Below, in pieces: positions 9,287 to 25,960 of a stretch of 25,960 nt of DNA. Source of the stretch: a virus (Duplodnaviria; Caudoviricetes). The notes beneath the pieces were generated by a model, which was not told where the DNA came from, did no database searches, and saw nothing but the letters and a program-made list of their open reading frames with translations. The stretch is taken from positions 1 through 25,960 of the IMG/VR virus record IMGVR_UViG_3300018080_000537; one strand, 5' to 3'. The translations under genes were made by a program, and so were the position numbers. The number at the start of each line of letters is the position of its first letter. Position 1 is the stretch's first letter.

Positions 9287-9330
9287 TATAAATACATAAA
9301 AAAATATAAAATAAAATACATTAATACAAT

Positions 9331-10020: not shown

Positions 10021-10057
10021 AATTTCTATTCCTTATATATTACATATATGACATACA

Positions 10058-10742: not shown

Positions 10743-10772
10743 AGTAACACCTCCTACTAGTTTATACTAACT

Positions 10773-11231
10773 CTATTGATTTGAGACTAACACATTAGTT
10801 CTTCCGACAGTAGTACTTGTTATATCATATGGAGTTCTTACTGCGAAATCAACACTACCTTCGGTAATTGTATCTGCATCTCCCATACTAATATCAAATC
10901 CTGTTACAGCACAAGATACTAGATAGAAATGTAATGAATTAGGTCCTGCATTTCCTGAAATTGCTAAATCAGTTCCTTTAACTACTGCTCCAAGAATCCA
11001 TGGAGCTGCATTTTGGTCTAACTTGCAATGGGTTAATGATAATTCTGCACTTAATGAACCTGCTACTCTATAATTTCCTGCTTCTCCTACAAGCTCTTGT
11101 TCTACAACTCCTTTATCTAGCGTAAGGCTAAAGTCAGAAATTCCTAAACCTGTATGAGTTGCTACACTAGTACCTGAGTAAATCCAAATTGAAGCATTTT
11201 CTCCTGTATAAGTTGTTGGTGTTCCTGTCAT
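10773..11231 (-). CDS. Tail tube (major tail) protein paralogue 2
   Basis: Beta-rich, 152 aa; shares GISDFSL, VEQELVGE.GNY, GSLS and VTG.DISMGDADTITE with the adjacent gene; sits between terminator and TAC. Confidence 0.72.
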   Translation of the reverse strand: MTGTPTTYTGENASIWIYSGTSVATHTGLGISDFSLTLDKGVVEQELVGEAGNYRVAGSLSAELSLTHCKLDQNAAPWILGAVVKGTDLAISGNAGPNSLHFYLVSCAVTGFDISMGDADTITEGSVDFAVRTPYDITSTTVGRTNVLVSNQ

Positions 11232-11233
11232 TT

Positions 11234-11680
11234 TTAGTCCTCCATATGTCCTGAATTATTAATAGAGACTTGGTGAGGATTCATAACAACCCAATCAATA
11301 CTTGCTTCCGTAATAGTATCAGCATCTCCCATTGATATATCATATCCAGTCACTTGACAAGATCTAAAATACCAACTAAGATTTGAACCAGTACTTCCAG
11401 AAACAGTTAGATAAGTGGCATCTCCTAAAACATTCTCTAATGCATCATACAATCCAGAGGCAGCAAACTTACAACACGTATAAGAACCTTCTAAAGATAA
11501 TGAACCGTGAGTAAAATAATTACCTCGTTCACCCACAAGTTCTTGTTCAACTGTTCCTCTAGCAACATTCAATGAAAAATCTGATATACCCCAAAGACTG
11601 TCAGCTCTAAGTGTTGCGGCAGCTCCTGCAGCATGAGATCCAATTGCAATATATGCACTACTTCCAGTTACTGTTCCCAT
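11234..11680 (-). CDS. Tail tube (major tail) protein paralogue 1
   Basis: Same shared motifs as paralogue 2; GGTGA SD; follows the tail terminator gene. Confidence 0.72.
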   Translation of the reverse strand: MGTVTGSSAYIAIGSHAAGAAATLRADSLWGISDFSLNVARGTVEQELVGERGNYFTHGSLSLEGSYTCCKFAASGLYDALENVLGDATYLTVSGSTGSNLSWYFRSCQVTGYDISMGDADTITEASIDWVVMNPHQVSINNSGHMED

Positions 11681-11717
11681 AATTATTCACCAATTTATAT
11701 ATACATAATAACGTACA

Positions 11718-12119
11718 TTAATCATCTACATTCTCTATATGTGTCCATATTTGAGTATTTACATACGATTTAATTTCATTGTTATAATCATCACTCTGAG
11801 ATACTCTTCTATATCCTATTCCATTTAATAATGCTTTAGATATATAATCAGAAATTCTTTGTGATGATACAATTGACCAATTATTAAATATATTTATTTG
11901 AAATGTTGAGTTTTCTCTCTTTAACTTTTCTCCAACAGATGCTGTATTATAACCTAAATATCCCCAACTATCTCCACCAGTTTGGTGTATAGTTATAGAT
12001 GGTACATATAACTCATCATTTGGAAATCCTACTCTAATATAATTAGATGGTATATAACTTGTTATATCTGAACTATCTACTAATAACTTTCTCGTAGAAG
12101 AATATGATGCATAACTCAT
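11718..12119 (-). CDS. Tail terminator/completion protein (SPP1 gp17-like)
   Basis: 133 aa; LLVDSSDITSYI, P.ITI and FQINIF pattern; canonical position after the gp10-like gene. Confidence 0.65.
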   Translation of the reverse strand: MSYASYSSTRKLLVDSSDITSYIPSNYIRVGFPNDELYVPSITIHQTGGDSWGYLGYNTASVGEKLKRENSTFQINIFNNWSIVSSQRISDYISKALLNGIGYRRVSQSDDYNNEIKSYVNTQIWTHIENVDD

Positions 12120-12607
12120 TTTATCATCCTAAGATTCTTTATTACTTTATCTCCAAATAAATCCAGTAATGTTCCTTTTGCCATATACATTCCTTTTTGA
12201 AAGAAAGCTTTTGGAGGTTGTCCTTTTACTCTATATCTATACATTTGTTTACCATTATACATAAAAGACAGAGCTTTTGAGTTTTTAGCATGAATATCAG
12301 CATTTAATGTTCCATATTCTACAGCTTGAGAGTGAGAGGATTTACTAATCAGATAGTTAGTAAATGTATTACCTTTAGATTCTACTTTAGTTATCTCCCA
12401 ATTTTCTGGATTAATTATACTTTGTTCGTCTCTCTTCAATCCAACTCCAAGTTTATTAGCTTTTAAGAAATTTATAGATTGTTCTTTGATATAATCTAAC
12501 GCATCTTCCATACATGATTTAGTTCCGGTATCTATTGCAGATTTAACCTTTTCTAAATTTCTATAGACTTTTTTGTATCCAGTTATCTTTGTTTTAATAA
12601 AGCTCAT
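12116..12607 (-). CDS. HK97 gp10-like neck/tail completion protein
   Basis: HSQAVEYGT and VKGQPPKAFF motifs; basic. Start at ATG 12607 (GGAG SD, ATGA overlap); the track start is 12625. Confidence 0.75.
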   Translation of the reverse strand: MSFIKTKITGYKKVYRNLEKVKSAIDTGTKSCMEDALDYIKEQSINFLKANKLGVGLKRDEQSIINPENWEITKVESKGNTFTNYLISKSSHSQAVEYGTLNADIHAKNSKALSFMYNGKQMYRYRVKGQPPKAFFQKGMYMAKGTLLDLFGDKVIKNLRMIK

Positions 12608-12924
12608 ATTTGCTCCACTATACAAGTTATATGATGGTGTGAGGAGTCAAAGTATTTAGATCTAACATAGTAATAATCTCCAGAGTAACTAATTCTACCA
12701 CCCATATCAATAGATGCACTAGATAGAAAGAATACTTTATAAGATATTTTATTAAATTCTCCACCTATCTTAGATTGCTCTTCTAAAGTTAGAGGTACAA
12801 ATCTACATTTTGTAGATGTTGTAGAATATGTCCATGTTTCTGGTCTTACTTCTCCAAACTCATTTATAGATGATGTAGAAGAACCTATATAACAATTGTG
12901 TATTAATAAACCTTCATAAGTCAT
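12604..12924 (-). CDS. Head closure/head-tail joining protein (SPP1 gp16-like)
   Basis: NEFGE...TW, KCRF, YKVFF...IDMGGRISYSGDYYYV and HHITC pattern; start reassigned to ATG 12924 (track 12960). Confidence 0.7.
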   Translation of the reverse strand: MTYEGLLIHNCYIGSSTSSINEFGEVRPETWTYSTTSTKCRFVPLTLEEQSKIGGEFNKISYKVFFLSSASIDMGGRISYSGDYYYVRSKYFDSSHHHITCIVEQI

Positions 12925-12925
12925 A

Positions 12926-13165
12926 TTACATTCCATGTATTTTTTTATGACAAGATTCACAAACTGTTATTAAATTAGCAGGATTTGATGAACCCCCTCT
13001 TCCAATAGGAACAACATGATGACAATGGGGTTTATTTAAATTAGGTCTACCACATATCTGACATGTATATTTATCTCTACTAAAGACATAAAATCTAATT
13101 TTGTTCCAGTTATGAGGATATCTTTCATCTTCCATTCCCTGAGAGTTATAAGGTCTTCTATACAT
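12926..13165 (-). CDS. Small HNH endonuclease
   Basis: RDKYTCQICG...HCHHVVPIGRGGSSNPANLITVCESCHKKIH is a canonical zinc-binding HNH motif. Confidence 0.9.
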   Translation of the reverse strand: MYRRPYNSQGMEDERYPHNWNKIRFYVFSRDKYTCQICGRPNLNKPHCHHVVPIGRGGSSNPANLITVCESCHKKIHGM

Positions 13166-13856
13166 ATTTTAACTTCTCCCTATAATAATTTTCCCAATCA
13201 TTCCTATTGTAGTTAGTTTTCATATGACATGTTCTGCATAAACTAATTAAATTATTTTCATTACAATTTTTCTTATTATAGTCTATATGATGAACATGTA
13301 GGGTATATCCTAATTGTTTTTGAGTATATCCACATTCTTGACAAGTATACTTATCACGTTTTCTTATTTTCTCCTTTAGTCTATTGTTGAACTCTTTAGG
13401 ATAATCTATATATGAACTACCACCATTCCATCCATGATTGTTCTCTCCTGAAATTTTGTTGAGGGTTTCTTCTTTGTGACGTTTTCCATAAAATGGATTG
13501 TTTTCACCTACTAGTACTAATTTTAAATACTCAGCATAACATTTACGTGAACAAAATTTTCTATTCCTTCCTGCAGGAGGTATTGTAAAAATTTTATTAC
13601 AATACATACAAGATTTTTTAATATATTGCTTTCTCCTAAATGTTATTCCAGTTTGATATTTGTCTCTACATTTCTTACAACAAAAAGAATAGAATCCATC
13701 ACTCAATGTGTGAAATTTTGTTTTCTTATCACAAACTTTACAATGTCCAACATCTCCGATATATCTTAGATAGTATTCTTCAGCTGAAATATTATGAGTT
13801 CTAATATGTTTTCCAATAGATGAATATTCTTCTCCACATATTTTACACTTAGTCAT
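13158..13856 (-). CDS. Free-standing HNH homing endonuclease with zinc fingers and NUMOD3-like motif
   Basis: N-terminal CxxC..H..H finger, FCSRKC, NPFYGKRHKEETLNKIS (NUMOD3-like), C-terminal RDKYTCQECG..LHVHHIDYNKKNCNENNLISLCRTCH. Confidence 0.88.
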   Translation of the reverse strand: MTKCKICGEEYSSIGKHIRTHNISAEEYYLRYIGDVGHCKVCDKKTKFHTLSDGFYSFCCKKCRDKYQTGITFRRKQYIKKSCMYCNKIFTIPPAGRNRKFCSRKCYAEYLKLVLVGENNPFYGKRHKEETLNKISGENNHGWNGGSSYIDYPKEFNNRLKEKIRKRDKYTCQECGYTQKQLGYTLHVHHIDYNKKNCNENNLISLCRTCHMKTNYNRNDWENYYREKLKYV

Positions 13857-13866
13857 TTATCTTTCC

Positions 13867-15240
13867 TTAATCATTAGCCTTTCTAACAACATAATCAGAT
13901 GGAGATGACATTTTCTCTAACATTTCTATAGCCATTCCATGCCAAGTTTTAGTTATAATAAAAGGACTAGATTGTATATCCATACCTCTAGATATTGGTT
14001 CTGCTAAAGTATAACTATTTCCAGTAAGAAATGTTACTCCTTTATCTCTAACTAACCAAGTTCCTAAAGAAGTCTTAGGACACCATACAATTCCTTTATA
14101 GTCTTTAAATCCATTATGTAGGTTTTTAACTCCTACATTCCTTTTAGTTTGACAACTGAGAGAATATACTCCATTATCATCCTTTTTCCTTAGAGTAGTT
14201 CCGTATCCACATAATACACTTAAAGCCTGAAAAGAATTCATAGTTTCATTAAGTTTCTGATAAAATCTATCTCGTTTCTTATCACCATCACCTAATTTCA
14301 TAACCTTCCATAGTAAATTTAATTGTTTTGTATTTATTGATGTTATAAAATTCATAGTTAATTGTTTATTAGGACAAACTTTCTTTAAATCATTAAATAA
14401 CTTTGTATTTGCTGGAATATAAAATCCTATATTTCCATTTCCGTGTTTATGTTCACTTATCTCATCATCTAATAATTTATTTAGACATTTCCGTATACTA
14501 TTACAATTATTCCTATTTACAATTTTATTCTGATTGATAAAAGCAGAGTAAATTTTACCAGTTCTACTACTTTTTTGCCAATTTCCTTCAGTAACAAACC
14601 AACCAACACATTCAACAAATTCATCGGAATATTCAGTATTATTTATATTTATAGACCTTGCTGCTCTAGGAATAGTATCCCATGTATTTAAATCCTTACT
14701 TGTTTTTATTCTTTGACTCCATTTTGCTGAACTATGTATTGGTTTTACATACCATCTATGATTTGGTGTAGCTAATGTGTCAAATGAATTTCTCTTAGAT
14801 TTTAGATGTAACATTTTACCAATGTATGGTGTTATATGTATATCCTCTACTTTAGTCCATTTGACCCTATCAGATTTTTCATCATATCCTAATATTTCAT
14901 CATCTAACTTTAACTCGTAAGGATTTTTCCATCCTTCTTTTGTTAAAGTTTCTGTAGTATCAGGTAAACAATAATCTCCTAATGTCTCCGAGCTTAAGGT
15001 ATAATATTTCTTAGCTAAAGCTGGTGTAGATATTAGATTAGATATAACTAATAATAATACAGGAATTCTTGCTTTAGATGGTAATGAACCTCCATTAAAA
15101 TATCTATATTTAACATAACTTTCAACAGATTCTATCTTTAATAAAATTTCTGCTTTAGATACATCATCATAATCTAATGGAGGAGAAACAAAATTCCTTA
15201 CATCGTATTCATTAACAACTTGTGGGGAATAATCTACCAT
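13867..15240 (-). CDS. Head-tail adaptor (gp6/gp15-like) precursor interrupted by an intein; mature protein about 139 aa
   Basis: Joining the exteins restores SSETLGDY|SYTL, the SE.xGDYSY motif of type-1 adaptors; located between MCP and head closure genes. Confidence 0.78.
   Translation of the reverse strand: MVDYSPQVVNEYDVRNFVSPPLDYDDVSKAEILLKIESVESYVKYRYFNGGSLPSKARIPVLLLVISNLISTPALAKKYYTLSSETLGDYCLPDTTETLTKEGWKNPYELKLDDEILGYDEKSDRVKWTKVEDIHITPYIGKMLHLKSKRNSFDTLATPNHRWYVKPIHSSAKWSQRIKTSKDLNTWDTIPRAARSININNTEYSDEFVECVGWFVTEGNWQKSSRTGKIYSAFINQNKIVNRNNCNSIRKCLNKLLDDEISEHKHGNGNIGFYIPANTKLFNDLKKVCPNKQLTMNFITSINTKQLNLLWKVMKLGDGDKKRDRFYQKLNETMNSFQALSVLCGYGTTLRKKDDNGVYSLSCQTKRNVGVKNLHNGFKDYKGIVWCPKTSLGTWLVRDKGVTFLTGNSYTLAEPISRGMDIQSSPFIITKTWHGMAIEMLEKMSSPSDYVVRKAND
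14017..14970 (-). mobile_element. Intein (318 aa) with LAGLIDADG homing endonuclease
   Basis: Block A CLPDTTETLTKEGWK, block B ATPNHRWY, LAGLIDADG-like VGWFVTEGN and MKLGDG, block F/G VWCPKTSLGTWLVRDKGVTFLTGN followed by Ser+1. Confidence 0.93.
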
Positions 15241-15242
15241 AT

Positions 15243-15497
15243 TTACTCTCCTATTCTCTTATCAGTATATCTGATATCCTTTTTCTGTCTAGTACCAGTT
15301 GTTGTATCTAGTGGAAATGGATATTGTTTTACTTTATAGTTATCAGAGTCAGTTTCTCCACCACCATCTTCTATAGATGTGATTTCTAGTCTTTCTAACT
15401 CAGCATCAGAATATCCTGTTCTATTTTCTAATGCTTTATTTCTACTATCTTGAACATCCTTCTTCATCCACTCTTGATCCCCACGTCCAGTTAACAT
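15243..15497 (-). CDS. Hypothetical protein (84 aa)
   Basis: Co-oriented ORF tightly packed between neighbours; no recognisable motif. Confidence 0.55.
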   Translation of the reverse strand: MLTGRGDQEWMKKDVQDSRNKALENRTGYSDAELERLEITSIEDGGGETDSDNYKVKQYPFPLDTTTGTRQKKDIRYTDKRIGE

Positions 15498-15507
15498 TTA
15501 TAATTCC

Positions 15508-15750
15508 TTACCAATGATGATTGAATAATGGTATATAATACTCATTAGCACTATCGTCAGTAACTCTTAACCAAGCTGTTGCACTAGCTGCAGGTAAAAC
15601 TTCAACTGCTCCAGTGGCTCCACCAGATACATTAGTATCCCATGTACTTACATCAAAATTTGATGCATCATCATCGATGTATAATCCTCTACCACCGGAT
15701 TCTATTCTAACCTTTTCTATATTAAGGACAGGTATTCTTGTTCCAGGCAT
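15508..15750 (-). CDS. Small putative head fibre/spike protein (80 aa)
   Basis: GGAGTGA SD; C-terminal WLRV......YYIPLF resembles short fibre-tip motifs; lies directly after MCP. Confidence 0.45.
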   Translation of the reverse strand: MPGTRIPVLNIEKVRIESGGRGLYIDDDASNFDVSTWDTNVSGGATGAVEVLPAASATAWLRVTDDSANEYYIPLFNHHW

Positions 15751-15782
15751 TTACTATCACTCCTTATTAAAAGAAACACATT

Positions 15783-15816
15783 AAACAGAAAGAATTGGAT
15801 AGATATTATTCTATCC
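15783..15816 (-). terminator. Hairpin plus pyrimidine tract after MCP
   Basis: GGATAGA-ATAATA-TCTATCC followed by AATTCTTTCTGTTT directly after the MCP stop. Confidence 0.55.
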
Positions 15817-16779
15817 TTACTTAGTCAAAATATTGTTTGCAGCCTTTGGTTGGATGGTTGCAGTTCCATATCTCATTGTACAAGAGATTCCTACAATATC
15901 ATGAATTGGATCATCATACTGTTCAACAGTTAAATCTCTTCGCATTGCAAGATATGTGCTTGCAGCAGAATCTAAAACAATACCATAATAATGGTTTGCA
16001 GAATCTGTACTATCCCAATAATGTCCAGTAGAGCCAGTAGTAACTGAGCAAGTATATGGAGTCATTCCCATGATTTTAGGAATTCCGCCAGTTGTCAATG
16101 GACTTGTGGTTCCAGCAAAGGATGCATATGCAAGATTTGAGTCTTGTAATAGATATCCTTCAGCAGTTGGATGGAAAATCATCTTATCTGGCATATAATT
16201 TTCTGCGGCAACTGCAGCTCGAGCTGTTGCTAAATCAGAAACTGAAAGATGTGCACCTGCTGGGTCAGTATCCGTTGTAGTTGCATCAGTAAGAATCTCT
16301 AAAAGAACATCACGGTTAAGTTTATTCTCCATTCTCATACCAGCTTTTTGAAGCTCAAGATTTACAATATCAAAGAGTCCATCTTCAATAAGTTCATTGG
16401 TAATCAATGGTCGAGTACCAACTTTCTTAATGGTAATATCCTCTTTTGAATACACTTGAGTATCAATAGGGACGTTAGCTCCTTCTGCAAGTTCTTCTGC
16501 ATAAGTGCCAGTTTCTCCTTTTACAACACGAACAGAATACGAGTCAGTTCTAATTACTGGAACAATATCTCTCATACATTTCCAAGGTTCTGCTCCTTCA
16601 GAGATAGTTCTATAAACTTCCTCTTGTAAAAGATTAGAAGTTTGTCTTGAATCAGATTGTAAAAGTTCTTTCACATCTTTACCAAGAAGTTTCTCTGTTG
16701 AAGGTTTGTTAAGGATAGCATCTCTCTTTGAGTTGTCTGCATATCCTATTTGTAACAATTTAGTTAGTTTATTTGTCAT
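15817..16779 (-). CDS. Major capsid protein (HK97 fold)
   Basis: LAEGANVP, ITIKKVG...ITNELIEDGLFDIVNLELQKAGMRMENKLN, PDKMIFHP, IPKIMGM and MRYG are typical HK97-fold MCP segments. Confidence 0.92.
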   Translation of the reverse strand: MTNKLTKLLQIGYADNSKRDAILNKPSTEKLLGKDVKELLQSDSRQTSNLLQEEVYRTISEGAEPWKCMRDIVPVIRTDSYSVRVVKGETGTYAEELAEGANVPIDTQVYSKEDITIKKVGTRPLITNELIEDGLFDIVNLELQKAGMRMENKLNRDVLLEILTDATTTDTDPAGAHLSVSDLATARAAVAAENYMPDKMIFHPTAEGYLLQDSNLAYASFAGTTSPLTTGGIPKIMGMTPYTCSVTTGSTGHYWDSTDSANHYYGIVLDSAASTYLAMRRDLTVEQYDDPIHDIVGISCTMRYGTATIQPKAANNILTK

Positions 16780-16820
16780 ATTTTCATTCCATACTTAATA
16801 AAACATAAATAACATACACA

Positions 16821-17219
16821 TTATAATGAGTAACTATGACCGAGTATCAACACTTCTCCATCATCATAATTTGTAGATGGAGACTTAATTATAATTGCTC
16901 CACTATTATAAGTAGCTTCGTTAGATATAAAACCACCAGCAATACATCCTACTAATGTTCCTGCACTAAGAGTACTAGAACTTGATATCTTACATCTAAC
17001 AATATTACCTACAGGATATACTAGAACTTTCTCTCCTTCTGTTTTAGAATATCCCGCAATTCCATATAACTTTTGGACATTGTCAGTAGGAGCCTTTACA
17101 GTATTATCATTTGCTAAATATACAGCTTGACCTTTATAGATGTTACCTGATGCTGTATAAGAAATTCCACCAACAGGAGGTTGTACAGGTATTGAATCTT
17201 CTATTATAGAAAAACTCAT
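16821..17219 (-). CDS. Capsid cement/decoration protein paralogue 4 (DUF2190-like)
   Basis: TASGNIYKGQAVY..DNTV...GIA...G..V.VY..GNIVRC motif shared with three neighbours. Confidence 0.7.
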   Translation of the reverse strand: MSFSIIEDSIPVQPPVGGISYTASGNIYKGQAVYLANDNTVKAPTDNVQKLYGIAGYSKTEGEKVLVYPVGNIVRCKISSSSTLSAGTLVGCIAGGFISNEATYNSGAIIIKSPSTNYDDGEVLILGHSYSL

Positions 17220-17605
17220 ATTAACAAAACCCTACCAACCTTATTGGTATTTACAGTTTCAAAGTCACTTACAGATATTGCCATAGGACGTTCAGAACTA
17301 TATCTTCCTTCACTAACATATCCATTACTAGATGCATACAATAGTTTTCCTGATGTGATAGACTCAGGAGAACAAGCCATCGTTATATTACCTGGTAAAT
17401 AGATAGTACATTCTTCTCCATGGTAAGAATTATGGTCACATATTCCTATACCATTGGAGCCAAGTATACTAGAAGTTACCGTATTATTTGCTATAATCTT
17501 TACAGCTTGTCCTCTATGTAGATTACCACTAGCAGTAAATAGAAAACCAAATGTACCATCTTGATAGATAGTGTCAGATGATAAATCAGAATTATCCCAT
17601 GTCAT
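17216..17605 (-). CDS. Capsid cement/decoration protein paralogue 3
   Basis: TASGNLHRGQAVKI.ANNTV...GIGI...G....IY..GN...G.LLYAS.NG...V.L. Confidence 0.7.
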   Translation of the reverse strand: MTWDNSDLSSDTIYQDGTFGFLFTASGNLHRGQAVKIIANNTVTSSILGSNGIGICDHNSYHGEECTIYLPGNITMACSPESITSGKLLYASSNGYVSEGRYSSERPMAISVSDFETVNTNKVGRVLLI

Positions 17606-17617
17606 ATATTACTCTAA

Positions 17618-18034
17618 TTATTTCAAAAGAACTTTTACTAAACCGTCAGTAGTTCCCTGATTCATCAAAGCAATTGCAGCACCACTCATTGCAATTTCTG
17701 TAGCAGCAGCATCAGTACAATCATCCCAATCACCATCTGCAGCAACATATAACCAATCACCTTCAGAAACTGAAGAATTAGCTCTAGTCCAGCAAACTGC
17801 ACCTTGAGTGTATACTGAAATAGGATTTCCAGAAGTTGCTCCAATAGCAGCAATTCCTAATGCTTTCTTATCAGATCCAGCATTTCCAGCAACTACATAG
17901 GTATATGAAGTATCTCCACCAGTAGACAGAGTAACTCCTTGTCCTGCATAGATAGTTCCTGATGCCATACAATTTATTTTATTCTCTTTTCCTTGAATAC
18001 AGATATCTCTATCTGTTATAGCAGTCCATGCCAT
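17618..18034 (-). CDS. Capsid cement/decoration protein paralogue 2
   Basis: MASGTIYAGQGV...LGIAAIGATSGNPISVYTQG...GDWLYVAADG...VKVLL. Confidence 0.72.
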   Translation of the reverse strand: MAWTAITDRDICIQGKENKINCMASGTIYAGQGVTLSTGGDTSYTYVVAGNAGSDKKALGIAAIGATSGNPISVYTQGAVCWTRANSSVSEGDWLYVAADGDWDDCTDAAATEIAMSGAAIALMNQGTTDGLVKVLLK

Positions 18035-18059
18035 ATTTATTATCCTCTTTTAATTAACA

Positions 18060-18464
18060 TTAATATAACATTACACTTCCAACATAATTAGTACCACCAA
18101 TAGATATTAATGGTGTGTCTGTTACTATTCCAACGACTTTAGTTGCATTACCTTTAGATGATGTAAGTAAACCATCATCAGTTGCATATACTAAAGTAGA
18201 CGGATTATAATCACTATCAAAGCAACACCTAACAACATTTCCTCTAGTGTATACTCCTATTCTATTTCCTGATGTAGCATCAATGGATGCTATTCCTATA
18301 GAGTCACACTCTCCAGTTAATGAAGTTGTTACCTTAACAGTATTACTATTACATATATAAACAGCTTGCCCAGCGTAGATAGTCTCTCCTGATACAAACT
18401 TAAAAGCTCCAGTACCATCTATATATAGATTACTATCACTAATATCAGAAGTAGACCAACTCAT
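18060..18464 (-). CDS. Capsid cement/decoration protein paralogue 1
   Basis: FVSGETIYAGQAVY...IGIASIDATSGNRIGVYTRGNVVRC...LVYATDDG. Confidence 0.72.
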   Translation of the reverse strand: MSWSTSDISDSNLYIDGTGAFKFVSGETIYAGQAVYICNSNTVKVTTSLTGECDSIGIASIDATSGNRIGVYTRGNVVRCCFDSDYNPSTLVYATDDGLLTSSKGNATKVVGIVTDTPLISIGGTNYVGSVMLY

Positions 18465-18466
18465 AC

Positions 18467-19747
18467 TTAATCAAGATCCCTATAGATAGTACCTGGTCGA
18501 AGTTTGTCGTGTACAATTGATGATTTGTATTTTGGTTCTTCAACTTCTTCTTTTGATTCAGTATCTTCTTTAACAACTGTTTTAGGTTTTTCTGTTTTCT
18601 CTAGAACTTCAATCCGTTTTGAAAGTTCTGCAATCTCATCATCTTTTGATTTCAAAGTTACTTCGATTTCTTCTGACTTTTTAACATAGGAAGTTAATTC
18701 ACTTATTGCTTTTTTTAAGTCAGAGATATCTTTTTGAACATCATAAGATTTTTCTTCACAGTCGGTACATTCGTCATTAGCTTTTTCTTCGCTCATCATA
18801 GTTTCTTCTTCAGGTTCCTCTTCATCCATAGGTTCCTCTTCTGGCTTTTTAGCCAATTCTGAGACAATACCCTTTAGAGCTTCGATTTCTCTAGTCAGTC
18901 CATTGAGAATTTCTTTTGTATCAACTTCAGATTTCTCTTCCACCTCAGGTTCAGTAGTTTCTTCTGAAGTTTCTGATTTCTCTTCTGTAGGTTGTTCTTT
19001 AGTTTCTGTAACTTTAGATTTCTCTTCTATTACTTCTTCTTCAACCTCTGACTTTTCTATCTCTTCATCTTTGTTCATAGACTTACCCTTATTTATATTA
19101 CATTTCTCACAATCTTCTGATTTTGATACTACAACAAAACCAGACTTTTCATTTATTGGATATTCACATACAGATACTTCAAACATATTCATTTTATCGA
19201 TTACAGTATAACATGATTTGTCATCACACTCATCGTGTGCTAATAAAACTTCTGCTGCTATAGAAAATCCATTTATCTTACCATTTGTAATTTTACTCCA
19301 TATCTCATTAGATATCTCTAAGTCATCTCTTATAGATGCTACAATAAATAGACCTTTGTCATCTATATGGGTTTTATAATCTCCCCATCCTTCTAGTATT
19401 TTACCTATCTGAATGTTTTGGTGAGTTATCATTAGATTAGCATAATCAGATTTTCCTAGTAAGGTTCGTATACTATCTTCAAGGGTTGCTTTTGGAATAA
19501 ATTGATTTTCAGAATCTATCTCTATAATAGATGCATATCCAGCAATTATTCTTTCAGATTCCTTTGCTTTAGATATATAACTTACATTTCCTTTCATATG
19601 GAATTGAAGTTTTATGTCATCTGTTACCTTGTCATCACTTGGAGTAGTATCAGAGTTAACTACAAAAACAAGTGGATTATCCATAGATAGTTCTTTTATA
19701 CCTTTTAAAACCGATATTAATGACTTATCGCCACTATTATATCCCAT
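18467..19747 (-). CDS. Prohead protease (XkdF/HK97-type) fused to an acidic coiled-coil scaffold
   Basis: RIIAGYAS...D, LMITH (His), GFSIAA (Ser), EVSVCEYPIN; followed by a Glu-rich linker and coiled coil. Confidence 0.85.
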   Translation of the reverse strand: MGYNSGDKSLISVLKGIKELSMDNPLVFVVNSDTTPSDDKVTDDIKLQFHMKGNVSYISKAKESERIIAGYASIIEIDSENQFIPKATLEDSIRTLLGKSDYANLMITHQNIQIGKILEGWGDYKTHIDDKGLFIVASIRDDLEISNEIWSKITNGKINGFSIAAEVLLAHDECDDKSCYTVIDKMNMFEVSVCEYPINEKSGFVVVSKSEDCEKCNINKGKSMNKDEEIEKSEVEEEVIEEKSKVTETKEQPTEEKSETSEETTEPEVEEKSEVDTKEILNGLTREIEALKGIVSELAKKPEEEPMDEEEPEEETMMSEEKANDECTDCEEKSYDVQKDISDLKKAISELTSYVKKSEEIEVTLKSKDDEIAELSKRIEVLEKTEKPKTVVKEDTESKEEVEEPKYKSSIVHDKLRPGTIYRDLD

Positions 19748-20046
19748 ATTAATTTACCTACAATAGTTAGTAACATAACAAATACAGCATATATGTATTT
19801 GTCATACGTTTTAAACTTTTCAAATATTCTTGAAATGTTACTTTTTACTTTTTCAACTTCAATATCAATGCTTTTTATGTCTCCATTGATATGCTGCACA
19901 TGATTGGTTAACAATTTATTTAGATTGCCACATCTTTTGTGACATGTATCGTTATATTCCTTAAATGTATCAGTTACAGTATCATTTAACTTATCTATTT
20001 TATCCTCAATTCGCTTTATATAGTCATACAACTCTTGATTATCCAT
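19717..20046 (-). CDS. Coiled-coil protein with C-terminal transmembrane helix (XhlA/holin-like architecture)
   Basis: Heptad N-terminus RIEDKIDKLND and hydrophobic YIYAVFVMLLTIVGKLIW; GGAG SD. Confidence 0.5.
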   Translation of the reverse strand: MDNQELYDYIKRIEDKIDKLNDTVTDTFKEYNDTCHKRCGNLNKLLTNHVQHINGDIKSIDIEVEKVKSNISRIFEKFKTYDKYIYAVFVMLLTIVGKLIWDIIVAISH

Positions 20047-20061
20047 GCAACTCTCCTATAT

Positions 20062-20247
20062 CTATGGTTGTGTCATTGGCTCCCAATTCTTAGCTGTTGG
20101 GTTCCAAACATATAGGCAACATGCAATGGCGTTAGAGTCTGACAAGCCTGATACTGGAAAACCCATAAAGTTAACTATAGTATTATCAGGATTCAACGCA
20201 GAAGATGAGGACGGACTTGTGTAACGATATCCTCCGATTAATGACAT
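20062..20247 (-). CDS. Hypothetical protein (61 aa)
   Basis: GGGAGAG SD; co-oriented; ends LYVWNP...WEPM. Confidence 0.55.
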   Translation of the reverse strand: MSLIGGYRYTSPSSSSALNPDNTIVNFMGFPVSGLSDSNAIACCLYVWNPTAKNWEPMTQP

Positions 20248-20278
20248 ATAATATCTCTCCCTTATTATATAACAGAAA

Positions 20279-20503
20279 TTACATAGATTTAGATAATTGA
20301 TTAAGATAAGTTTGAATATTAGATAGTATATTCTTTAAAGATGATAGATTATTAGATTTCTTTGAGCTTGGATGTGCTTCTCTCCACATAGAATAACAAA
20401 TAGCTACTGCTTGGTCTTTAGGTCTTCCTTCACTTATAACAACAGGAACACATCTACCAATAAAATCTTTTTGTGATTCTCCTTCTTTAGGTGGTGCTGG
20501 CAT
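20279..20503 (-). CDS. Small head-module protein (PxxGES..FI.RC...QAVAICYSMW family)
   Basis: Motif recognised as recurrent near prohead proteases in tailed viruses; GGAG SD; function unknown. Confidence 0.6.
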   Translation of the reverse strand: MPAPPKEGESQKDFIGRCVPVVISEGRPKDQAVAICYSMWREAHPSSKKSNNLSSLKNILSNIQTYLNQLSKSM

Positions 20504-20514
20504 ATTTATTCTCC

Positions 20515-20826
20515 TTATTGCTGTATAATATGTGCATGAAAGTGCTCTGGTATAAATTTAAGATTTGATTTAAGTCTTATATTATTACCATACTCCTTTC
20601 TACAAATGTATAACATCTTACCCCATAAGTCATTAGATATATTAGGAACATGATCTCTAACAACTATCATTGGAGTAGATAATGTTTTGCAACTAACTAT
20701 TACAAAGTCAGAGTTATTTATAGAATCTCCATCCATATAATGCAAATCAGATATAAAACTATTATCTATATCTAAAAAAACATTACATAGCGGACATCCT
20801 GTTACTAGGTTGTGATTTATATCCAT
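20515..20826 (-). CDS. HIT (histidine triad)-like protein
   Basis: N-terminal CPLC, internal VVRDH and C-terminal HFHAHII match the HIT H-x-H-x-H-x-x motif. Confidence 0.7.
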   Translation of the reverse strand: MDINHNLVTGCPLCNVFLDIDNSFISDLHYMDGDSINNSDFVIVSCKTLSTPMIVVRDHVPNISNDLWGKMLYICRKEYGNNIRLKSNLKFIPEHFHAHIIQQ

Positions 20827-20827
20827 A

Positions 20828-20974
20828 TTAAATATATTTTATTGATTTGTTACCATCTTTATATACTAGATAATTATCTACATCAACTAGTTTATTAAGA
20901 ATACAATGATAACATTCTACATTAAAGTTTTTACATATATCTTTAAATGGACACTCAACCTTAGATTCTGGCAT
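20828..20974 (-). CDS. 48-aa four-cysteine microprotein (not in ORF track)
   Basis: MPESKVECPFKDICKNFNVECYHCILNKLVDVDNYLVYKDGNKSIKYI*; GGAG SD; fills the gap between protease and HIT genes. Confidence 0.6.
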   Translation of the reverse strand: MPESKVECPFKDICKNFNVECYHCILNKLVDVDNYLVYKDGNKSIKYI

Positions 20975-21458
20975 CGGAACACGCTCCACGGTCTCCATAG
21001 ACTATAGCACAACCTAAGAAGTCTATGTCTCCTGCTACTAGTTCATATGTATCATTATCATAGGTATCACTAGATTGTAACTCAACTGATAATGCTTTAA
21101 CTAATCCTAAATCTATTGCAGTTACTGCTTCTCTACCAGCAGAAAGTTTAGTATTTATATATAAGTCTCCCTTAACTGCATTATCTTTCCAAGTTACGTT
21201 CTGAACAGTTCCTGCTAGTTTCATAATACTCCAATCGTGGTCTAGATTTAGATAATTAGATATCCATCTTTTAGAGCCTTGCATAAGTTCGTTAGGACGA
21301 TAAGTGATTGGTCTTCTAGATACTGAATCAGTCCAAGTTCCTGGAGTTATTAGAGTAGCATCTCTAAAGATTCTAACTTCACTACTCTTCTGAATTATCT
21401 TCGTCTGTGTTAGGTTTTTTAGATTCACTATCTGATGATGGTGTAGATTCTTCGTCAT
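20961..21458 (-). CDS. Second putative prohead protease (DUF2213/Mu gpI-like), stand-alone without scaffold
   Basis: LITPGTW, YxPxEL, LNLDH (His), ALSVE (Ser), GCAIV..RGACSDARI; GAGGAGGT SD 5 nt before the ATG, inside the portal 3' end. Confidence 0.7.
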   Translation of the reverse strand: MTKNLHHHQIVNLKNLTQTKIIQKSSEVRIFRDATLITPGTWTDSVSRRPITYRPNELMQGSKRWISNYLNLDHDWSIMKLAGTVQNVTWKDNAVKGDLYINTKLSAGREAVTAIDLGLVKALSVELQSSDTYDNDTYELVAGDIDFLGCAIVYGDRGACSDARI

Positions 21459-22680
21459 CTTCTACCTCCTCACTATTTACATCTTTATTAGTTAACAATT
21501 CATTTAATGATTCAATAGGTTTTAATCCAAATTGTGCTCTAAACTCATTTCCTGTGAGAGGAATATCACCTTTGAATCCTCTTAAGATATTACCCCACCA
21601 TTTAGCTTTTAGAGCTTCATCTTCTGCTGTAACACTATTGAAATTAATATAAACCCAATTCTTTGGATCTTCCATATCTATTCCATTTTCCTCTAGATAT
21701 GGTTTGAATAATTGATCTTCTAACATGACTGATATATCTGTTTGAAATCCCTTAATCATTCTTTCATATAATACTGCTTTAACTCTTGCAGTTGCTTCTG
21801 TAGATCCTTTGCCTTGTCCTAAAGCCTCTTCTGGACACATAAGTCCTACAATCATTTGTGTTTGAAATAAATCATAATATTCTCTTACACCTTGAACTCC
21901 TCTTTCATCTATTGTTGCTATAGATATATACCATGGAACAATAAATTCATTTTTGGAATTTATATCCTCAAACTCCTTTTTAATGTCATCCATGACAGTT
22001 GATGGAGGAACTTGTCCGTCTTTTTCTGAACCTACTGTAACTACATATTTTGCAGTATGTCTTTGAATTGCATTATACAAAGACTCGTCAGTTGCTACCT
22101 TTCTGTCTATAGTATCCATATTTGGAGTCATTAAAGATATTCCATAAGGAGAACCAGGTATAGGAAATAATCTAAAATGTAATATTTCTTCAGGTTTTAA
22201 AGGAGATCCTATTAATTTTCCACCAATATATTGTTGAAAATCTACAATATCTCCAAATTTATCATCATTTATAATAACAGTTCTACTATCTATGACTTTA
22301 AGTCTAGATATAAGACCTTTACCAGTTTTTATCTTTTCTATGAATGCATCTCCAAATATTAATGCATTCTTAGTTGCTTCTTTCATTACTTGTGGAAGCC
22401 GTACTCGTTTACATAATGAGGTTATTAAGTCTCTTGCTTTTTCATTTTCAGATTCAATAGTATAACCAACCATTGTAGTATTTAAAGCTATACTATTTAT
22501 AGATGCAAATATAGTTCCTTCTCCAGAATAGTATGTCCAATAAGTATTTAATAGAGTTGGGTTTCTTTCTCTAGATGATATACCTCCACCAGAAGAACCT
22601 TCTCCGGTTCTTACAACTGATTTTGGCTTACCATCTTTCTTTAAATACTTAATCTTCTTTGAGAAGGGATTTAGACTCAT
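21382..22680 (-). CDS. Portal protein
   Basis: About 432 aa after TerL; ALIFGDAFIE, PEEILHFRL...YGIS, GLMCPEEALG, NEFRAQFGLKP; acidic tail. Start at ATG 22680 (GGTG SD); the track start is 22692. Confidence 0.88.
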   Translation of the reverse strand: MSLNPFSKKIKYLKKDGKPKSVVRTGEGSSGGGISSRERNPTLLNTYWTYYSGEGTIFASINSIALNTTMVGYTIESENEKARDLITSLCKRVRLPQVMKEATKNALIFGDAFIEKIKTGKGLISRLKVIDSRTVIINDDKFGDIVDFQQYIGGKLIGSPLKPEEILHFRLFPIPGSPYGISLMTPNMDTIDRKVATDESLYNAIQRHTAKYVVTVGSEKDGQVPPSTVMDDIKKEFEDINSKNEFIVPWYISIATIDERGVQGVREYYDLFQTQMIVGLMCPEEALGQGKGSTEATARVKAVLYERMIKGFQTDISVMLEDQLFKPYLEENGIDMEDPKNWVYINFNSVTAEDEALKAKWWGNILRGFKGDIPLTGNEFRAQFGLKPIESLNELLTNKDVNSEEVEDDEESTPSSDSESKKPNTDEDNSEE

Positions 22681-22948
22681 CTTTATATACACCTTTTAAT
22701 AGAATTTCTAATGTACTTACATTTCTTTCTTCATAACCTTCACTTCCTATAGTAATTTCATATGTAGGATTTTCTAGATATTGTCTTATGAAGATTGCTG
22801 CAACATCAATTGCTCTCTTTATGTTATTTCCTCTAGATACTAAAAGTACTTCATTGGAATTATTAAAAGCATATTTACAGGCATTTATGTAACTTTTTAT
22901 TTCTTTATCGCCTATAGGAACAGTTTCGATATCTTCCTTAGTATTCAT
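22649..22948 (-). CDS. albA: Alba-family DNA/RNA-binding chromatin protein
   Basis: IGDKEIKSYI..C...F...NEVLLVSRGNNIKRAIDVA...ITIGSE....RNVSTLEILL aligns along its full length with archaeal Alba (IGKKPVMNYV..EIVIKARGRAISKAVD..IRVGSQ..RVSTIEI). GGAGAG SD before ATG 22948. Confidence 0.88.
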   Translation of the reverse strand: MNTKEDIETVPIGDKEIKSYINACKYAFNNSNEVLLVSRGNNIKRAIDVAAIFIRQYLENPTYEITIGSEGYEERNVSTLEILLKGVYKDESKSLLKED

Positions 22949-22969
22949 ATACTCTCTCCATTTCAAACA

Positions 22970-24478
22970 TTAGACTTTATATATCTTATAAGAAGATTTA
23001 GTAGATATGAAGTCTTTTACATTAGAATAATCTATAAATCCTCCAGAATCGGAGGTTTGTATAGAAAATGATAATGAATCAGCACAGTCATCATGTGCTC
23101 CTAAAGGATACATTCCTAATTCATTAATTAAATTCTCTAAAGAGGGATTAAGATAGATTCTTCCTGTCTCGAATAAAAGAGACATTCTGTCCATTCTAGT
23201 ATCTCTATCGTTGACTATAGATGATTTAATAGGGACTATTGGTAGATTTGGATTATCTCTAATTATATCATCAACAATTATCTTTTGTTGAGCGGATGCT
23301 TCTAATCCTATTCTACTAGGATGCCATTTGTCATCCATAGATTTTATTATTTCAATTTGTCTGTGTAAAGATGAATGTGTTCTATAGTTATCTATAACAT
23401 ATACATCACCATCAGAGTTAACTCCTACAACACTCACAGCAAAGTAATCACTCTTTTTATCTTCACCACCAAAGTCAACTCCCATGTAGTATTTTAGATT
23501 AGTTGGAATAATTCCTCCTAACTTTATAAACTTTTCTTTTGCTTTGTGTAACCACTCACTCTTAAACTTTGAGATTCCTGATGCCATTATCTCATTTTGA
23601 TATTGCATCTGAAAGTGCATTTCACCTTGATGCCTTCTAATAAATTCTAAAGTTAAACTATCTTCAGTTAATAAAGGTTTATTTTCCTTTTCTCTCTTTA
23701 TGTTTAACTCTTTTATCATATTAACATCATAAGGAAGATGTTCAGGCCATAGAACTTCTGCTCCGTTGCCATTTTCATCAGGTTCCTTTAACAATGCTTG
23801 ATATCTATAAGTTTTAAATCCAGACTTTTTAGATAGATAGCTATGAATATCATCTTCATGCCACTTGGTTCCAATGTTAATAACTTTTGTATTAGACAGA
23901 AAAGTACCAACTAAAGGACCATTGTACCAATCTTCTAACTCTCCTCTTTGGTGTTCTGTTTTAGAATTATTGTTATCTGTTATATCATCTAAGATAATTA
24001 GGTCATAGTGAGCTGATATAATTTTAGATGATACTCCAAGAACCTTTAAAGTAGGTTCATTATAAAATCTTTGAACTTCACTAGATGATTTTACACGAAT
24101 TTGGTCTCTTGACCAGTTTGAATGTCCTTTAAAGTCTCCGAATAAGTCTATTAATTTCGTATTTTTAGATAGATTTTCTTGTACAAAGGTCATCATACTG
24201 TTAGCTTTATCTTGGTTAATAGTAACAATTAGAATTCTAATATTTCTATTCTTTACTATTCTCCATAAGATATATGAACCAACTGTCGTTGTCTTACCAT
24301 GGCCCCGTGGAGCTAAAAGAACTGTAAATTTATTATCCTCAAATGCTTTTAACCATTCCTGATGGAATGATTCACAATCTAATCCTAGCAAATCTGTCAT
24401 AAATGCAACAGGATCTGATGTGTATTTCAGTATTTTTAATTGGTCTTCACCAAGTAAACTAAATATATTATCTGTCAT
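22970..24478 (-). CDS. terL: Terminase large subunit
   Basis: Walker A LAPRGHGKT, Walker B LIILDD, IGTKWHEDD, nuclease MGVDFG and HDDCADS. Confidence 0.95.
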   Translation of the reverse strand: MTDNIFSLLGEDQLKILKYTSDPVAFMTDLLGLDCESFHQEWLKAFEDNKFTVLLAPRGHGKTTTVGSYILWRIVKNRNIRILIVTINQDKANSMMTFVQENLSKNTKLIDLFGDFKGHSNWSRDQIRVKSSSEVQRFYNEPTLKVLGVSSKIISAHYDLIILDDITDNNNSKTEHQRGELEDWYNGPLVGTFLSNTKVINIGTKWHEDDIHSYLSKKSGFKTYRYQALLKEPDENGNGAEVLWPEHLPYDVNMIKELNIKREKENKPLLTEDSLTLEFIRRHQGEMHFQMQYQNEIMASGISKFKSEWLHKAKEKFIKLGGIIPTNLKYYMGVDFGGEDKKSDYFAVSVVGVNSDGDVYVIDNYRTHSSLHRQIEIIKSMDDKWHPSRIGLEASAQQKIIVDDIIRDNPNLPIVPIKSSIVNDRDTRMDRMSLLFETGRIYLNPSLENLINELGMYPLGAHDDCADSLSFSIQTSDSGGFIDYSNVKDFISTKSSYKIYKV

Positions 24479-24480
24479 CG

Positions 24481-24520
24481 AAAGAAATTAGAGGGAGGTT
24501 TACTCCCAATTATATAAGGT
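24481..24520 (-). promoter_or_regulatory. TATA-like box, hairpin and pyrimidine tract upstream of SD-less terL
   Basis: TTATATAA (24510-24517), GGGAG-TAAAC-CTCCC hairpin (24493-24507), then TCTAATTTCTTTCG-ATG with no SD. Confidence 0.4.
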
Positions 24521-24530
24521 TAAGATACAC

Positions 24531-24710
24531 CTAAAAGAGTTTTTCTTTGAATAATCCTACGAGAACACCAAGAAAGAGACCGATACTTTCCCAAGGTAAT
24601 GATGGAAAGATTTCAGTTTCTCCTAGCAAAACTCCTAGAATATATCCAGTCATACCGAAAACGATTGCATAAAATACTTTCATTCCGATACTGTCGTCTT
24701 TTAATGCCAT
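24531..24710 (-). CDS. 59-aa two-TM membrane protein (not in ORF track)
   Basis: MALKDDSIGMKVFYAIVFGMTGYILGVLLGETEIFPSLPWESIGLFLGVLVGLFKEKLF*; AAGGAG SD. Confidence 0.7.
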   Translation of the reverse strand: MALKDDSIGMKVFYAIVFGMTGYILGVLLGETEIFPSLPWESIGLFLGVLVGLFKEKLF

Positions 24711-24753
24711 AATCTTACTCCTTATTTAGTAAACATAAAAAAATAACATACAA

Positions 24754-24957
24754 TTAATCATTCCAATGTTTAACCATATTAACTAGAGAATGTAGTACTG
24801 CAACTGATATTGCAATTATAGCAGCATATTCTGGTGGAAACGTTTCTGTTTCTAGAAAGTTAACTGTGTATAAGAGTGCTTCTGGAATGATAACTAGTGC
24901 AAGTCCAGTAAAAAATTTCTTTAAAGTAATAGTCCAATCATATCCTTCACCTGGCAT
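24754..24957 (-). CDS. 67-aa two-TM membrane protein (holin-like)
   Basis: Two hydrophobic stretches; GGAGG SD; YDWTITLKK N-terminus. Confidence 0.6.
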   Translation of the reverse strand: MPGEGYDWTITLKKFFTGLALVIIPEALLYTVNFLETETFPPEYAAIIAISVAVLHSLVNMVKHWND

Positions 24958-24971
24958 TATATAATTCCTCC

Positions 24972-25523
24972 TTATTCTTCTTCTTTGTTAGATACTATAT
25001 CTATAATCTTAGATCTACATGCAGGACATAACTTATCAGATAACTCTATAAACATATTATTAATCTTTGTTAGATTTAATGTTTGTGCTTGGTTTCTAGG
25101 TTTGAATTCGTTAACCCCCCATTGAATCAAATCTATCCAATTCTTCTTTTGTTGATCCAAAGCAGTTAATGTGTCTTTTGCTGCTTTAATAGTTTTATAG
25201 TTATCATCTTCAGATACTATCTTTTTTAATGACTTTTTCATAATAAGATATATCTCTTGTGTTTCATCCTCTAAATCATCCATCTTCGCTCTAAATTCAC
25301 CACGTAAATCTTCCCAAGTGTCGATTCCATTATCAATCTTCTTTTCTTCTAATTGAACTTTATAAGAATCTAAAAATCTCTTAACTGACATAAAACTAAT
25401 TGAGAAGTCTTCATGTGCATCATTAATAGATTGAGCTATCTCTTTATAACCCAATCCTTCATCCCTTAATTTTAATACTTCATCTTCTATTTCATGTTGT
25501 ACTATCTTATTAATATTAACCAA
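24972..25523 (-). CDS. Putative terminase small subunit (N-terminal HTH plus helical oligomerisation region)
   Basis: LRDEGLGYKEIAQSIN...ISFMSVKRFL HTH; coiled coil; C-terminal CPAC; TTG start with GGTGA SD; lies upstream of terL. Confidence 0.6.
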   Translation of the reverse strand: MVNINKIVQHEIEDEVLKLRDEGLGYKEIAQSINDAHEDFSISFMSVKRFLDSYKVQLEEKKIDNGIDTWEDLRGEFRAKMDDLEDETQEIYLIMKKSLKKIVSEDDNYKTIKAAKDTLTALDQQKKNWIDLIQWGVNEFKPRNQAQTLNLTKINNMFIELSDKLCPACRSKIIDIVSNKEEE

Positions 25524-25527
25524 TATA

Positions 25528-25575
25528 TCACCTTGTATGAATCAAATTAATATAAGTCCCGCCACATCCCGACAT
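25528..25575 (-). CDS. Candidate 15-aa leader ORF MSGCGGTYINLIHTR
   Basis: AAGGAGTGA SD 5 nt before the ATG; its TGA stop lies within the GGTGA SD of terS. Confidence 0.35.
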   Translation of the reverse strand: MSGCGGTYINLIHTR

Positions 25576-25662
25576 GCTTGTCACTCCTTTGTTACTATAT
25601 TCAATAATATAATATAGTTACTAGTGTTTTTTACTAAAATGTCTTCTATAAGGAGAGAACTA

Positions 25663-25678
25663 CCGAAACCTTTATATA
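25663..25678 (+). promoter_or_regulatory. Archaeal-type promoter (BRE plus TATA), divergent from the structural operon
   Basis: CCGAAACC-TTTATATA matches the AAANN-TTTATATA archaeal consensus. Confidence 0.55.
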
Positions 25679-25960
25679 GTAGGAGTTACCAACATACCTA
25701 TATTTTACACTATAAAACTCCTATAAAATAGTATTTAACATCATCTATAAACATAAGTTGACACTACCTTCTAGATTTGCCTGAGGATTGACAGAGAGCC
25801 ACGCTAAGGGCAAAACTCTTATTACCCTATACTATACCCCTAGAACGGCTTTTTTAGGGGTAAGTGGCCTTAGAATGCTTTAAAATGCGTTTTCGGGCTA
25901 GAGAAGGTTTTGCTTTCCGTTAACACATATTTTTTTAACTAAGTTCGGTATAGGGTTGTG

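Follow-up and report, generated by a model that had tools for sequence, protein, structure and literature searches.

The Alba gene and its neighbours in the window

The window, i.e. the whole stretch of viral DNA analysed here (25,960 nucleotides), carries on its minus strand a head-assembly block in which a small gene of the Alba family is located between the genes of the terminase large subunit (terL) and the portal protein. Read along this strand, the relevant features are:

24972..25523, minus strand: 183-aa gene at the head of the block, likely the terminase small subunit by position only; same location in 46 of 49 relatives
24754..24957, minus strand: 67-aa hydrophobic gene, conserved block member; in place in 47 of 51 relatives
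22970..24478, minus strand: terL, terminase large subunit, 502 aa; phrog_38 (E 5.6e-79), PF17289, NF033889
22959-22952, minus strand: Shine-Dalgarno-like GGAGAGAG ahead of the alba ATG, based on the sequence and on similar words in relatives
22649..22948, minus strand: viral Alba-family gene, ATG at 22948 and TAA at 22651-22649, 99 aa; PF01918, PDB matches, structure model
21382..22680, minus strand: portal protein, 432 aa from ATG 22680; PF04860 (39.8 bits), phrog_12
20961..21458, minus strand: 165-aa gene past portal, resembling a prohead protease solely by eye; same location in 48 of 52 relatives
20515..20826, minus strand: 103-aa gene, HIT-like fold with HFHAH motif; in place in 41 of 43 relatives

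The 99-residue protein scores 43.8 bits against PF01918, the Alba family of Pfam (gathering cut-off 25; E 2.2e-11), profile-profile comparison with the Alba family yields a probability of 99.8%, and all 12 sequence matches in the PDB are Alba/Sac10b proteins. An AlphaFold2 model based on 104 sequences (pLDDT 89.4) displays the element order beta-alpha-beta-alpha-beta-beta and an IF3-C-like fold, and its top Foldseek matches are all Alba, with an rmsd of 1.1 A over 79 columns for Mja10b (1nh9). According to structure comparison, the Alba fold is also common to Rpp20/Rpp25 of RNase P/MRP. The NCBIfam models for Alba1, however, are missed by the protein, which reaches 36.3 bits for TIGR00285 (cut-off 88.25) and 41 bits for NF003088 (cut-off 90). 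The window protein belongs to the Alba family without being a canonical Alba1. It is also acidic (pI 4.9, net charge -4), while the median pI of its viral clade is 8.8. Its residues include G13-D14-K15, Y20, R39-G40-N41, K44, R55 and R75, and its beta3-beta4 hairpin is short. A full-length Alba between terL and portal that overlaps the portal start had been claimed in an earlier note on this DNA, and both the profile search and the structural match bear this out; the residues read there as GDKE and RGN are present as well, and the hairpin described as shortened is five residues shorter.

The alba start lies 21 nt past the terL stop (22970), and the 3' end of the gene overlaps the portal start by 32 nt from ATG 22680, or by 44 nt from GTG 22692; the GGTG at 22693-22690, ahead of the portal ATG, sits within alba. 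Among relatives, alba overlaps portal in only 16 of 57 cases. As contig X4, originating from an independent study, covers positions 22576-23049 with zero differences, the terL-alba-portal junctions are not an assembly artefact.

Regarding the neighbouring genes, no family match was obtained for the 183-aa protein in Pfam, NCBIfam or PHROGs, nor for the 165-aa protein in Pfam or PHROGs. The HIT-like protein reaches a TM of 0.72 against HIT clusters, which is below the bar for naming, and belongs to an unnamed family that is also present in other viruses. Prohead protease and HK97-type capsid genes of the window were confirmed by profile searches. Possibly, two prohead proteases are encoded, namely by the 165-aa gene, an assignment made by eye, and by a PF04586 gene (18467-19747, minus strand) whose product has a long acidic tail. 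Four paralogues of 129-138 aa are arranged in tandem at 16821-18464 (minus strand), three of them weakly matching phage cement proteins, and a likely head-tail connector gene (13867-15240, minus strand) is split by an intein-like segment that shares 29% identity with an intein-bearing NrdD in an alignment of 342 aa. In many relatives, terL and portal are also interrupted by inteins, and some carry a gene with an ATP-dependent DNA ligase domain within the head module (L210:15609-18314, L216:7518-9449).

Conservation of the gene order, virus family and host

In order to avoid the bias of a search with Alba itself, portal and terL were used as queries, and Alba was found between the two genes in 64 of 68 contigs retrieved via portal (best 80 of 102 loci) or terL (49 loci). 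This set comprises contigs on which both terL and portal reach at least 200 bits, with near-identical contigs each counted; 23 loci from unrelated phages, matched weakly or by one gene only (L103-L120, L161-L165), were left out along with the junction-cut contigs L062 and L082. Two of the 64 positives, L093 and L094, harbor one extra gene between Alba and portal. After collapsing loci by their terL end, those found via Alba included, 57 of 60 have Alba in this slot. Searches with Alba as query afforded 14 and later 34 virus loci, in each of which Alba follows terL and precedes portal. In a metagenome set of 60 loci found by Alba, from which the window's own record was removed and which partly overlaps with the other contig set, Alba had terL as a neighbour in 49 of 51 testable loci and portal in 52 of 54. 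The terL-alba-portal order is hence conserved, and the sporadic insertion considered in the earlier note does not describe this gene.

The four exceptions are L095 and L096, near-identical copies from a distant virus (33% identity), and the family members L087 and L160, in which terL is joined directly to portal. Because a tree of TerL and portal places L087 within the Alba-bearing contigs (SH-aLRT 100), its lack of Alba represents a loss or relocation. No Alba was detected elsewhere on L087 (7 kb) or L160 (11 kb), both being fragments, and by eye the TerL C-terminus and the portal N-terminus are intact in both. As these two family contigs lack Alba between terL and portal, packaging works without a slot Alba in them. 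In relatives carrying the gene, the flanking gaps are short (medians of 12 and 5 nt) and a Shine-Dalgarno-like word precedes alba in 49 of 57 cases, which places alba in the head-assembly transcript with likely late expression. Since the 165-aa, HIT-like and 67-aa genes are equally fixed (48/52, 41/43 and 47/51), such synteny identifies a core late gene and not a motor cofactor.

Within the phylogeny, 58 of 59 distinct slot Albas cluster together and separately from 31 Thermoplasmatota Albas (SH-aLRT 94); in this larger tree, their cluster also contains 29 unlabelled rows. A smaller careful tree keeps 19 of 20 slot Albas together with a support of 93/95, its bootstrap being not fully settled. 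Neither tree, each spanning about 100 columns, resolves a cellular sister group; hence, the phylogeny proposed in the earlier note did yield a virus-specific clade, but not the host indication also expected of it. The single outlier among the 59 is L093, a distant virus with a divergent Alba whose start directly follows the terL stop. On L094, from a smaller-type distant virus with 34% portal identity, a divergent Alba (3270-3509) starts one base past the terL stop, while its sister L096 is without Alba. For L093/L094, this may reflect deep ancestry or, alternatively, another capture event in the same place. Over 55 loci, Alba distances correlate with those of TerL (Mantel 0.66) and portal (0.68), compared with 0.78 between TerL and portal, and mean divergence is equal (0.49, 0.49 and 0.50 for Alba, TerL and portal). 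Two close pairs reveal purifying selection on alba (dN/dS 0/0.14 and 0.024/0.57); beyond these pairs dN/dS is saturated, with medians of 0.40 for Alba, 0.25 for TerL and 0.29 for portal. Considering the virus-specific clade, the divergence rate similar to TerL and portal, and the slot absence in two family members, the slot Alba looks ancestral yet dispensable in this virus family.

Albas of other settings were encountered as well. Three of the 31 Thermoplasmatota Albas (L173:1438-1698, L176, L182) are second copies with a hairpin equally five residues shorter and an Arg at the same place; they do not group with the viral clade, and descent of the viral Albas from this short-hairpin paralogue is supported by neither tree. 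Six further IMG/VR contigs (L257-L262) carry Albas closer to the canonical type in gene settings other than the terL-portal slot, with Arg/Lys at position 44 and Ser at 47 in all six. Those of L258, L261 and L262 lie one or two genes ahead of genes that by eye resemble ParB-type and HTH genes. Two proteins of about 205-210 aa (P0129, P0136) contain two tandem Alba domains per chain.

Relatives of the window virus have sizes of 74-155 kb, and one 89-kb relative has terminal repeats. Among their gene products are RadA/RadB-like, Hef/ERCC4, family B polymerase and Hsp20 proteins, which match archaeal NCBIfam models best, though below cut-off, along with anaerobic or B12 ribonucleotide reductases; the sequencing runs containing the window are sediment and seawater metagenomes. 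Apparently, these viruses constitute a large, undescribed family of likely archaeal tailed viruses, and the host is likely an anaerobic archaeon. Family contigs were binned in two genomes of a single Thermoplasmatota class, G001 (host 50% GC versus contig 32%) and G321 (33% versus 28%), which makes Thermoplasmatota a weak host candidate; as three bacterial bins also hold family contigs, host assignment by binning is weak. In a CRISPR search that compared window positions 5961-25960 with 197 genomes belonging to this same Thermoplasmatota class, short matches were obtained and none of 10 checked loci lies in a repeat array; one 25-nt exact match (G373:C60) is outside the 10 loci checked for repeats. 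A search for the host via the viral ERCC4 nuclease gave 19 matches, all without organism label, and a scan for sigma-70 promoters returned 32 sites versus 38 expected, an uninformative difference. The contig G321:C4 (L238-L242) of the Thermoplasmatota bin is the 80.8-kb replication half of a family virus, ending just past the terS-like and 67-aa genes. Relatives (L220:4006-6670, L208, L213, L219) encode PEP mutase (above cut-off), phosphonopyruvate-decarboxylase-like proteins, NeuB and many sugar-modifying enzymes.

Residues of the predicted binding face

The contribution of individual residues is known from studied Albas. The DNA face comprises six basic residues, K16, K17, R44, K48, R59 and R83, and Mth10b, which is devoid of the K16, R44 and R83 equivalents, binds neither DNA nor RNA; for the same protein, S42, E49 and N53 are named as helix-2 interface positions (PMC3325275). 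In Sis10b, K16A reduces affinity about 2-fold, while K16N/R44I lowers dsRNA affinity 80-110-fold. K17, but not K16, is needed for growth and for RNA chaperone activity (unwinding, strand exchange), which additionally requires R44 and the patch M20/L24/L27/F60 that forms the inter-fibre interface; Sulfolobus Alba has been argued to work on RNA in vivo (PMC7498313). Stacking is centred on R59/F60 (PMC2841500) and gives rise to cooperative, stiff filaments (PMC2841500, PMC3535426). F60A and Alba1:Alba2, in contrast, bind non-cooperatively and condense DNA; Alba2 at a ratio of 1:20 leaves Alba1 filaments unaffected (PMC3535426). Alba2 itself displays a short hairpin with an Arg-rich KDRRR/RDRRR loop (PMC11167270).

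A residue census was performed on 59 viral and 31 cellular Thermoplasmatota Albas, using Sulfolobus numbering derived from an alignment with Mth10b and the equivalences given in PMC3325275. Within the viral clade, G15 (57 of 59), K17 (58), Y22, R42 and G43 (59 each) and D51 (58) are kept. The K16 site is occupied by Ser (18), Asn (11), Gly (8), Asp (8) or Lys (3), compared with Asn in 24 of 31 cellular Albas. Basic residues at position 44 are found in 12 of 59 viral versus 25 of 31 cellular sequences, the R59 site has turned into Asp, Gln or Glu in 47 of 59, K40 is retained only once at a site now hydrophobic, and the hairpin tip is five residues shorter in 54 of 59 (6 versus 11 residues), a deletion that includes the R83 region. 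Arg or Lys is present at position 48 in 46 of 59. Regarding the stacking patch M20, L24, L27, R59 and F60, the canonical form is not encountered in the clade: L24 is absent from all 59 Albas, Met is not among the seven commonest letters at site 20 (these cover 56 of 59 rows), position 27 is Phe in 37, and position 60 is Tyr in 37, His in 6 and Phe in a single sequence. Three basic residues are gained, namely Lys at 47 (56 of 59 viral versus 0 of 31 cellular), Arg at 58 (59 of 59 versus 12 of 31) and a hairpin Arg (56 of 59). Of the six-residue basic set, the window protein keeps only K17 and R48, and its hairpin loop reads GYEERN, without KDRRR/RDRRR and with one conserved Arg. At the dimer interface, D51 (58), S74 (56) and S/T88 (59) are kept, and several polar positions have changed: S47K (56 of 59), E54A (43) and N58R (59). 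Net charge is negative in only 6 of the 59 viral Albas, and the window protein combines neutral sites 16, 44 and 83 with an acidic pI; the C-terminal tails of viral Albas are basic (median net +2).

Five slot Albas contain a helical-looking insert of 27-29 residues just after helix 2, near the F60 stacking site. Identification of this insert as a UVR domain, to which it bears some likeness, was rejected, as no Pfam match was obtained at E 5.

L028:4672-5046, L048:3622-3984, L050:3634-4017, L124:3863-4246 and L130:3519-3869: insert-bearing Albas

Taken over the clade, the face appears rearranged in a way predicted to permit binding without stiff filaments. With canonical contacts lost and three new basic positions near-invariant, this may be read as a relocated, weaker and non-cooperative nucleic-acid site. 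The altered DNA-binding face of the earlier note is therefore a clade-wide trait of 59 Albas, but the Asp at the acetylatable K16 position is not part of its signature: Asp occurs in only 8 of 59 viral Albas, Asn prevails in Thermoplasmatota, and K16A costs only about 2-fold in Sis10b (PMC7498313), so that this Asp is taken as incidental. Mimicry of acetylation by Asp is rejected on the same count. The change at position 24, Asp16 and Arg58 also occur in an unlabelled Alba group that contains one cellular record. As the loss of L24 and Asp16 are shared with this group, not all changes are viral adaptations, and only K47, the short Arg hairpin and the loss of basic 44 look clade-specific.

Compared with known proteins, the viral Albas share the fold, G15/K17/Y22/R42/G43/D51 and a VSxIEI strand with Alba1/Sac10b (Sso10b, Ssh10b, Mja10b, Afu10b). 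They differ in being encoded by a virus as a core gene of the head operon, in scoring below the TIGR00285 cut-off, and in having lost R44, R59, M20, L24 and the hairpin tip while gaining K47, R58 and a hairpin Arg. Sulfolobus Alba2 (Sso10b2/Sac10b2) resembles them in its short hairpin and non-canonical stacking face (PMC11167270, PMC3535426). The viral proteins, however, have one Arg instead of the KDRRR/RDRRR loop and usually keep an aromatic residue at 60; moreover, Alba2 is the weakest match class among archaeal entries in the structure search and absent from the PDB sequence matches of the window protein. Mth10b (3TOE) is similar to the window protein in its non-basic K16 and R44 sites, the missing R83 and its acidity (pI 4.56 versus 4.9), but retains a long hairpin and R59, whereas a basic pI (median 8.8) is found in most viral relatives, together with the three new conserved basic residues.

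Possible roles at the packaging stage

The reading preferred here, though somewhat less likely than not, is that of a predicted dimer, likely translated late, that would bind nucleic acid but build no stiff filaments, and would act on viral DNA during packaging as a helper that is not essential. Operon spacing and the strong ribosome-binding site suggest that alba would be translated late from the head-assembly mRNA. Nucleic-acid binding would be retained through the near-invariant K17, Y22 and R42 together with the new K47, R58 and hairpin Arg; against this count the window protein's acidity and the loss of the K16, R44 and R83 equivalents, i.e. the pattern of Mth10b. Low cooperativity would follow from the lost M20, L24 and R59, the exchange of F60 for Tyr or His and the inserts of 27-29 residues in five relatives, although stacking could persist through Tyr/His at 60 and through the Phe found at position 27 in 37 of 59. 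The viral Alba might then occupy newly replicated genomes in competition with filament-forming host Alba, resulting in a loose coat from which terminase could cut and strip DNA, similar to lambda terminase, which uses IHF/HU. Like the viral Alba, IHF/HU and lambda gpW are small DNA-architectural or head-module accessories tied to terminase or portal genes; the fold of the viral Alba is unrelated to theirs, and IHF/HU are host-encoded. A packaging role is inferred, and position alone argues for it weakly, three unrelated neighbours being equally fixed. With two family contigs additionally joining terL straight to portal, coupling to the motor is unproven. A more far-reaching form, rather doubtful at present, regards Alba as domesticated into a packaging-coupled anti-chromatin factor, which would be made late with TerL and portal, replace or pair with host Alba, end the stiff filament and hand loose DNA to terminase, with L093/L094 as a possible second capture.

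The retained K17 also counts against a DNA role, as it is the residue needed for RNA chaperone activity (PMC7498313). Kept in 58 of 59 Albas next to the invariant Y22 and R42, it would suit an RNA chaperone or translational regulator of the long late mRNA or other viral RNA, for which the place in the operon would provide timing and not motor contact. The fold common to Rpp20/Rpp25 of RNase P/MRP points in this direction too, and an RNA role was proposed for the viral Alba next to an aspartyl-tRNA synthetase gene (PMC12647753). Nevertheless, such a function is on the unlikely side, as R44 and M20/L24/L27/F60, equally required according to PMC7498313, are degraded in the viral clade. Less probable still is the version of the earlier note, in which an Alba2-like heterodimer with host Alba breaks host filaments and thereby enables packaging. 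The short hairpin (54 of 59) and the degraded stacking face do resemble Alba2 (PMC11167270, PMC3535426), the interface residues D51, S74 and S/T88 are kept (58, 56 and 59 of 59), and a short-hairpin paralogue exists in Thermoplasmatota genomes (3 of 31). Since Alba2 is ineffective at 1:20 (PMC3535426), however, very high levels would be needed, and the positions corresponding to Mth S42, E49 and N53 (named in PMC3325275) are changed clade-wide to K, A and R (56, 43 and 59 of 59), a pattern with which self-pairing would agree equally well.

Portal-driven motors move bare DNA, which makes it quite improbable that the viral Alba is co-packaged as an internal head protein that would coat or bridge the genome and accompany it into the next cell. 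This possibility draws on the position in the head module, the strong Shine-Dalgarno word, the basic C-terminal tails (median net +2) and the ability of non-cooperative Alba forms to condense DNA (PMC3535426). The window protein is acidic, however, and the slot Alba is missing in two family members. In lambda, the slot between terL and portal is occupied by the gpW gene, and an Alba that has lost nucleic-acid binding like Mth10b could have been exapted there as an adaptor contacting TerL, portal or prohead proteins, which is considered the least probable of these functions. At the equivalents of K16, R44, R59 and R83, the basic residue is in most cases exchanged for a non-basic one or missing, K40 is replaced by hydrophobic residues (Lys in 1 of 59), and Mth10b with three such losses binds no DNA or RNA (PMC3325275). 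Three new near-invariant basic residues along with the invariant Y22/R42/G43, however, argue for a retained polyanion site, and TerL C-terminus and portal N-terminus are, by eye, intact in members without Alba.

Viral Albas have rarely been noted. No PHROGs family covers the window protein, 50,697 GenBank phage records contain no match to the viral Alba, and among the top 50 matches in BFVD there is no Alba, the best being a SpoVS-like protein with 10% identity. In full-text literature, subscription journals being outside the scope, no description of the terL-alba-portal order was found, and the word Alba is absent from the supplements of PMC10848311. A virus of DPANN archaea from AMD carries a single Alba gene beside that for aspartyl-tRNA synthetase, and for a halo/nanohaloarchaeal virus Alba is named in a map legend (bioRxiv 10.1101/2025.02.15.638363); neither PMC12647753 for the former nor the available part of the preprint for the latter describes a conserved clade or the terL-alba-portal order. 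The statement made in 2025 that Alba is otherwise unknown in archaeal viruses (PMC12647753) is overturned by 59 distinct slot Albas and six Albas in other viral settings.

The occurrence of Alba in this slot is a solid observation and wider than that of the earlier note, while its link to packaging and chromatin is a testable hypothesis and no result. The gene can serve as a marker for a large, undescribed family of sediment viruses, and its clade offers naturally occurring variants whose basic face is rearranged, which is useful in the debate on DNA versus RNA as the target of Alba. To our knowledge, it has not been worked out how archaeal tailed viruses package DNA made amid Alba and histones. 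With a conserved Alba specific to these viruses in the terminase-portal operon, this question can be tested on one protein of 99 residues. It is possibly the first known chromatin-handling aid to DNA packaging in an archaeal virus and, if the anti-chromatin reading is true, would give an archaeal head-tail motor a step in which chromatin is cleared.
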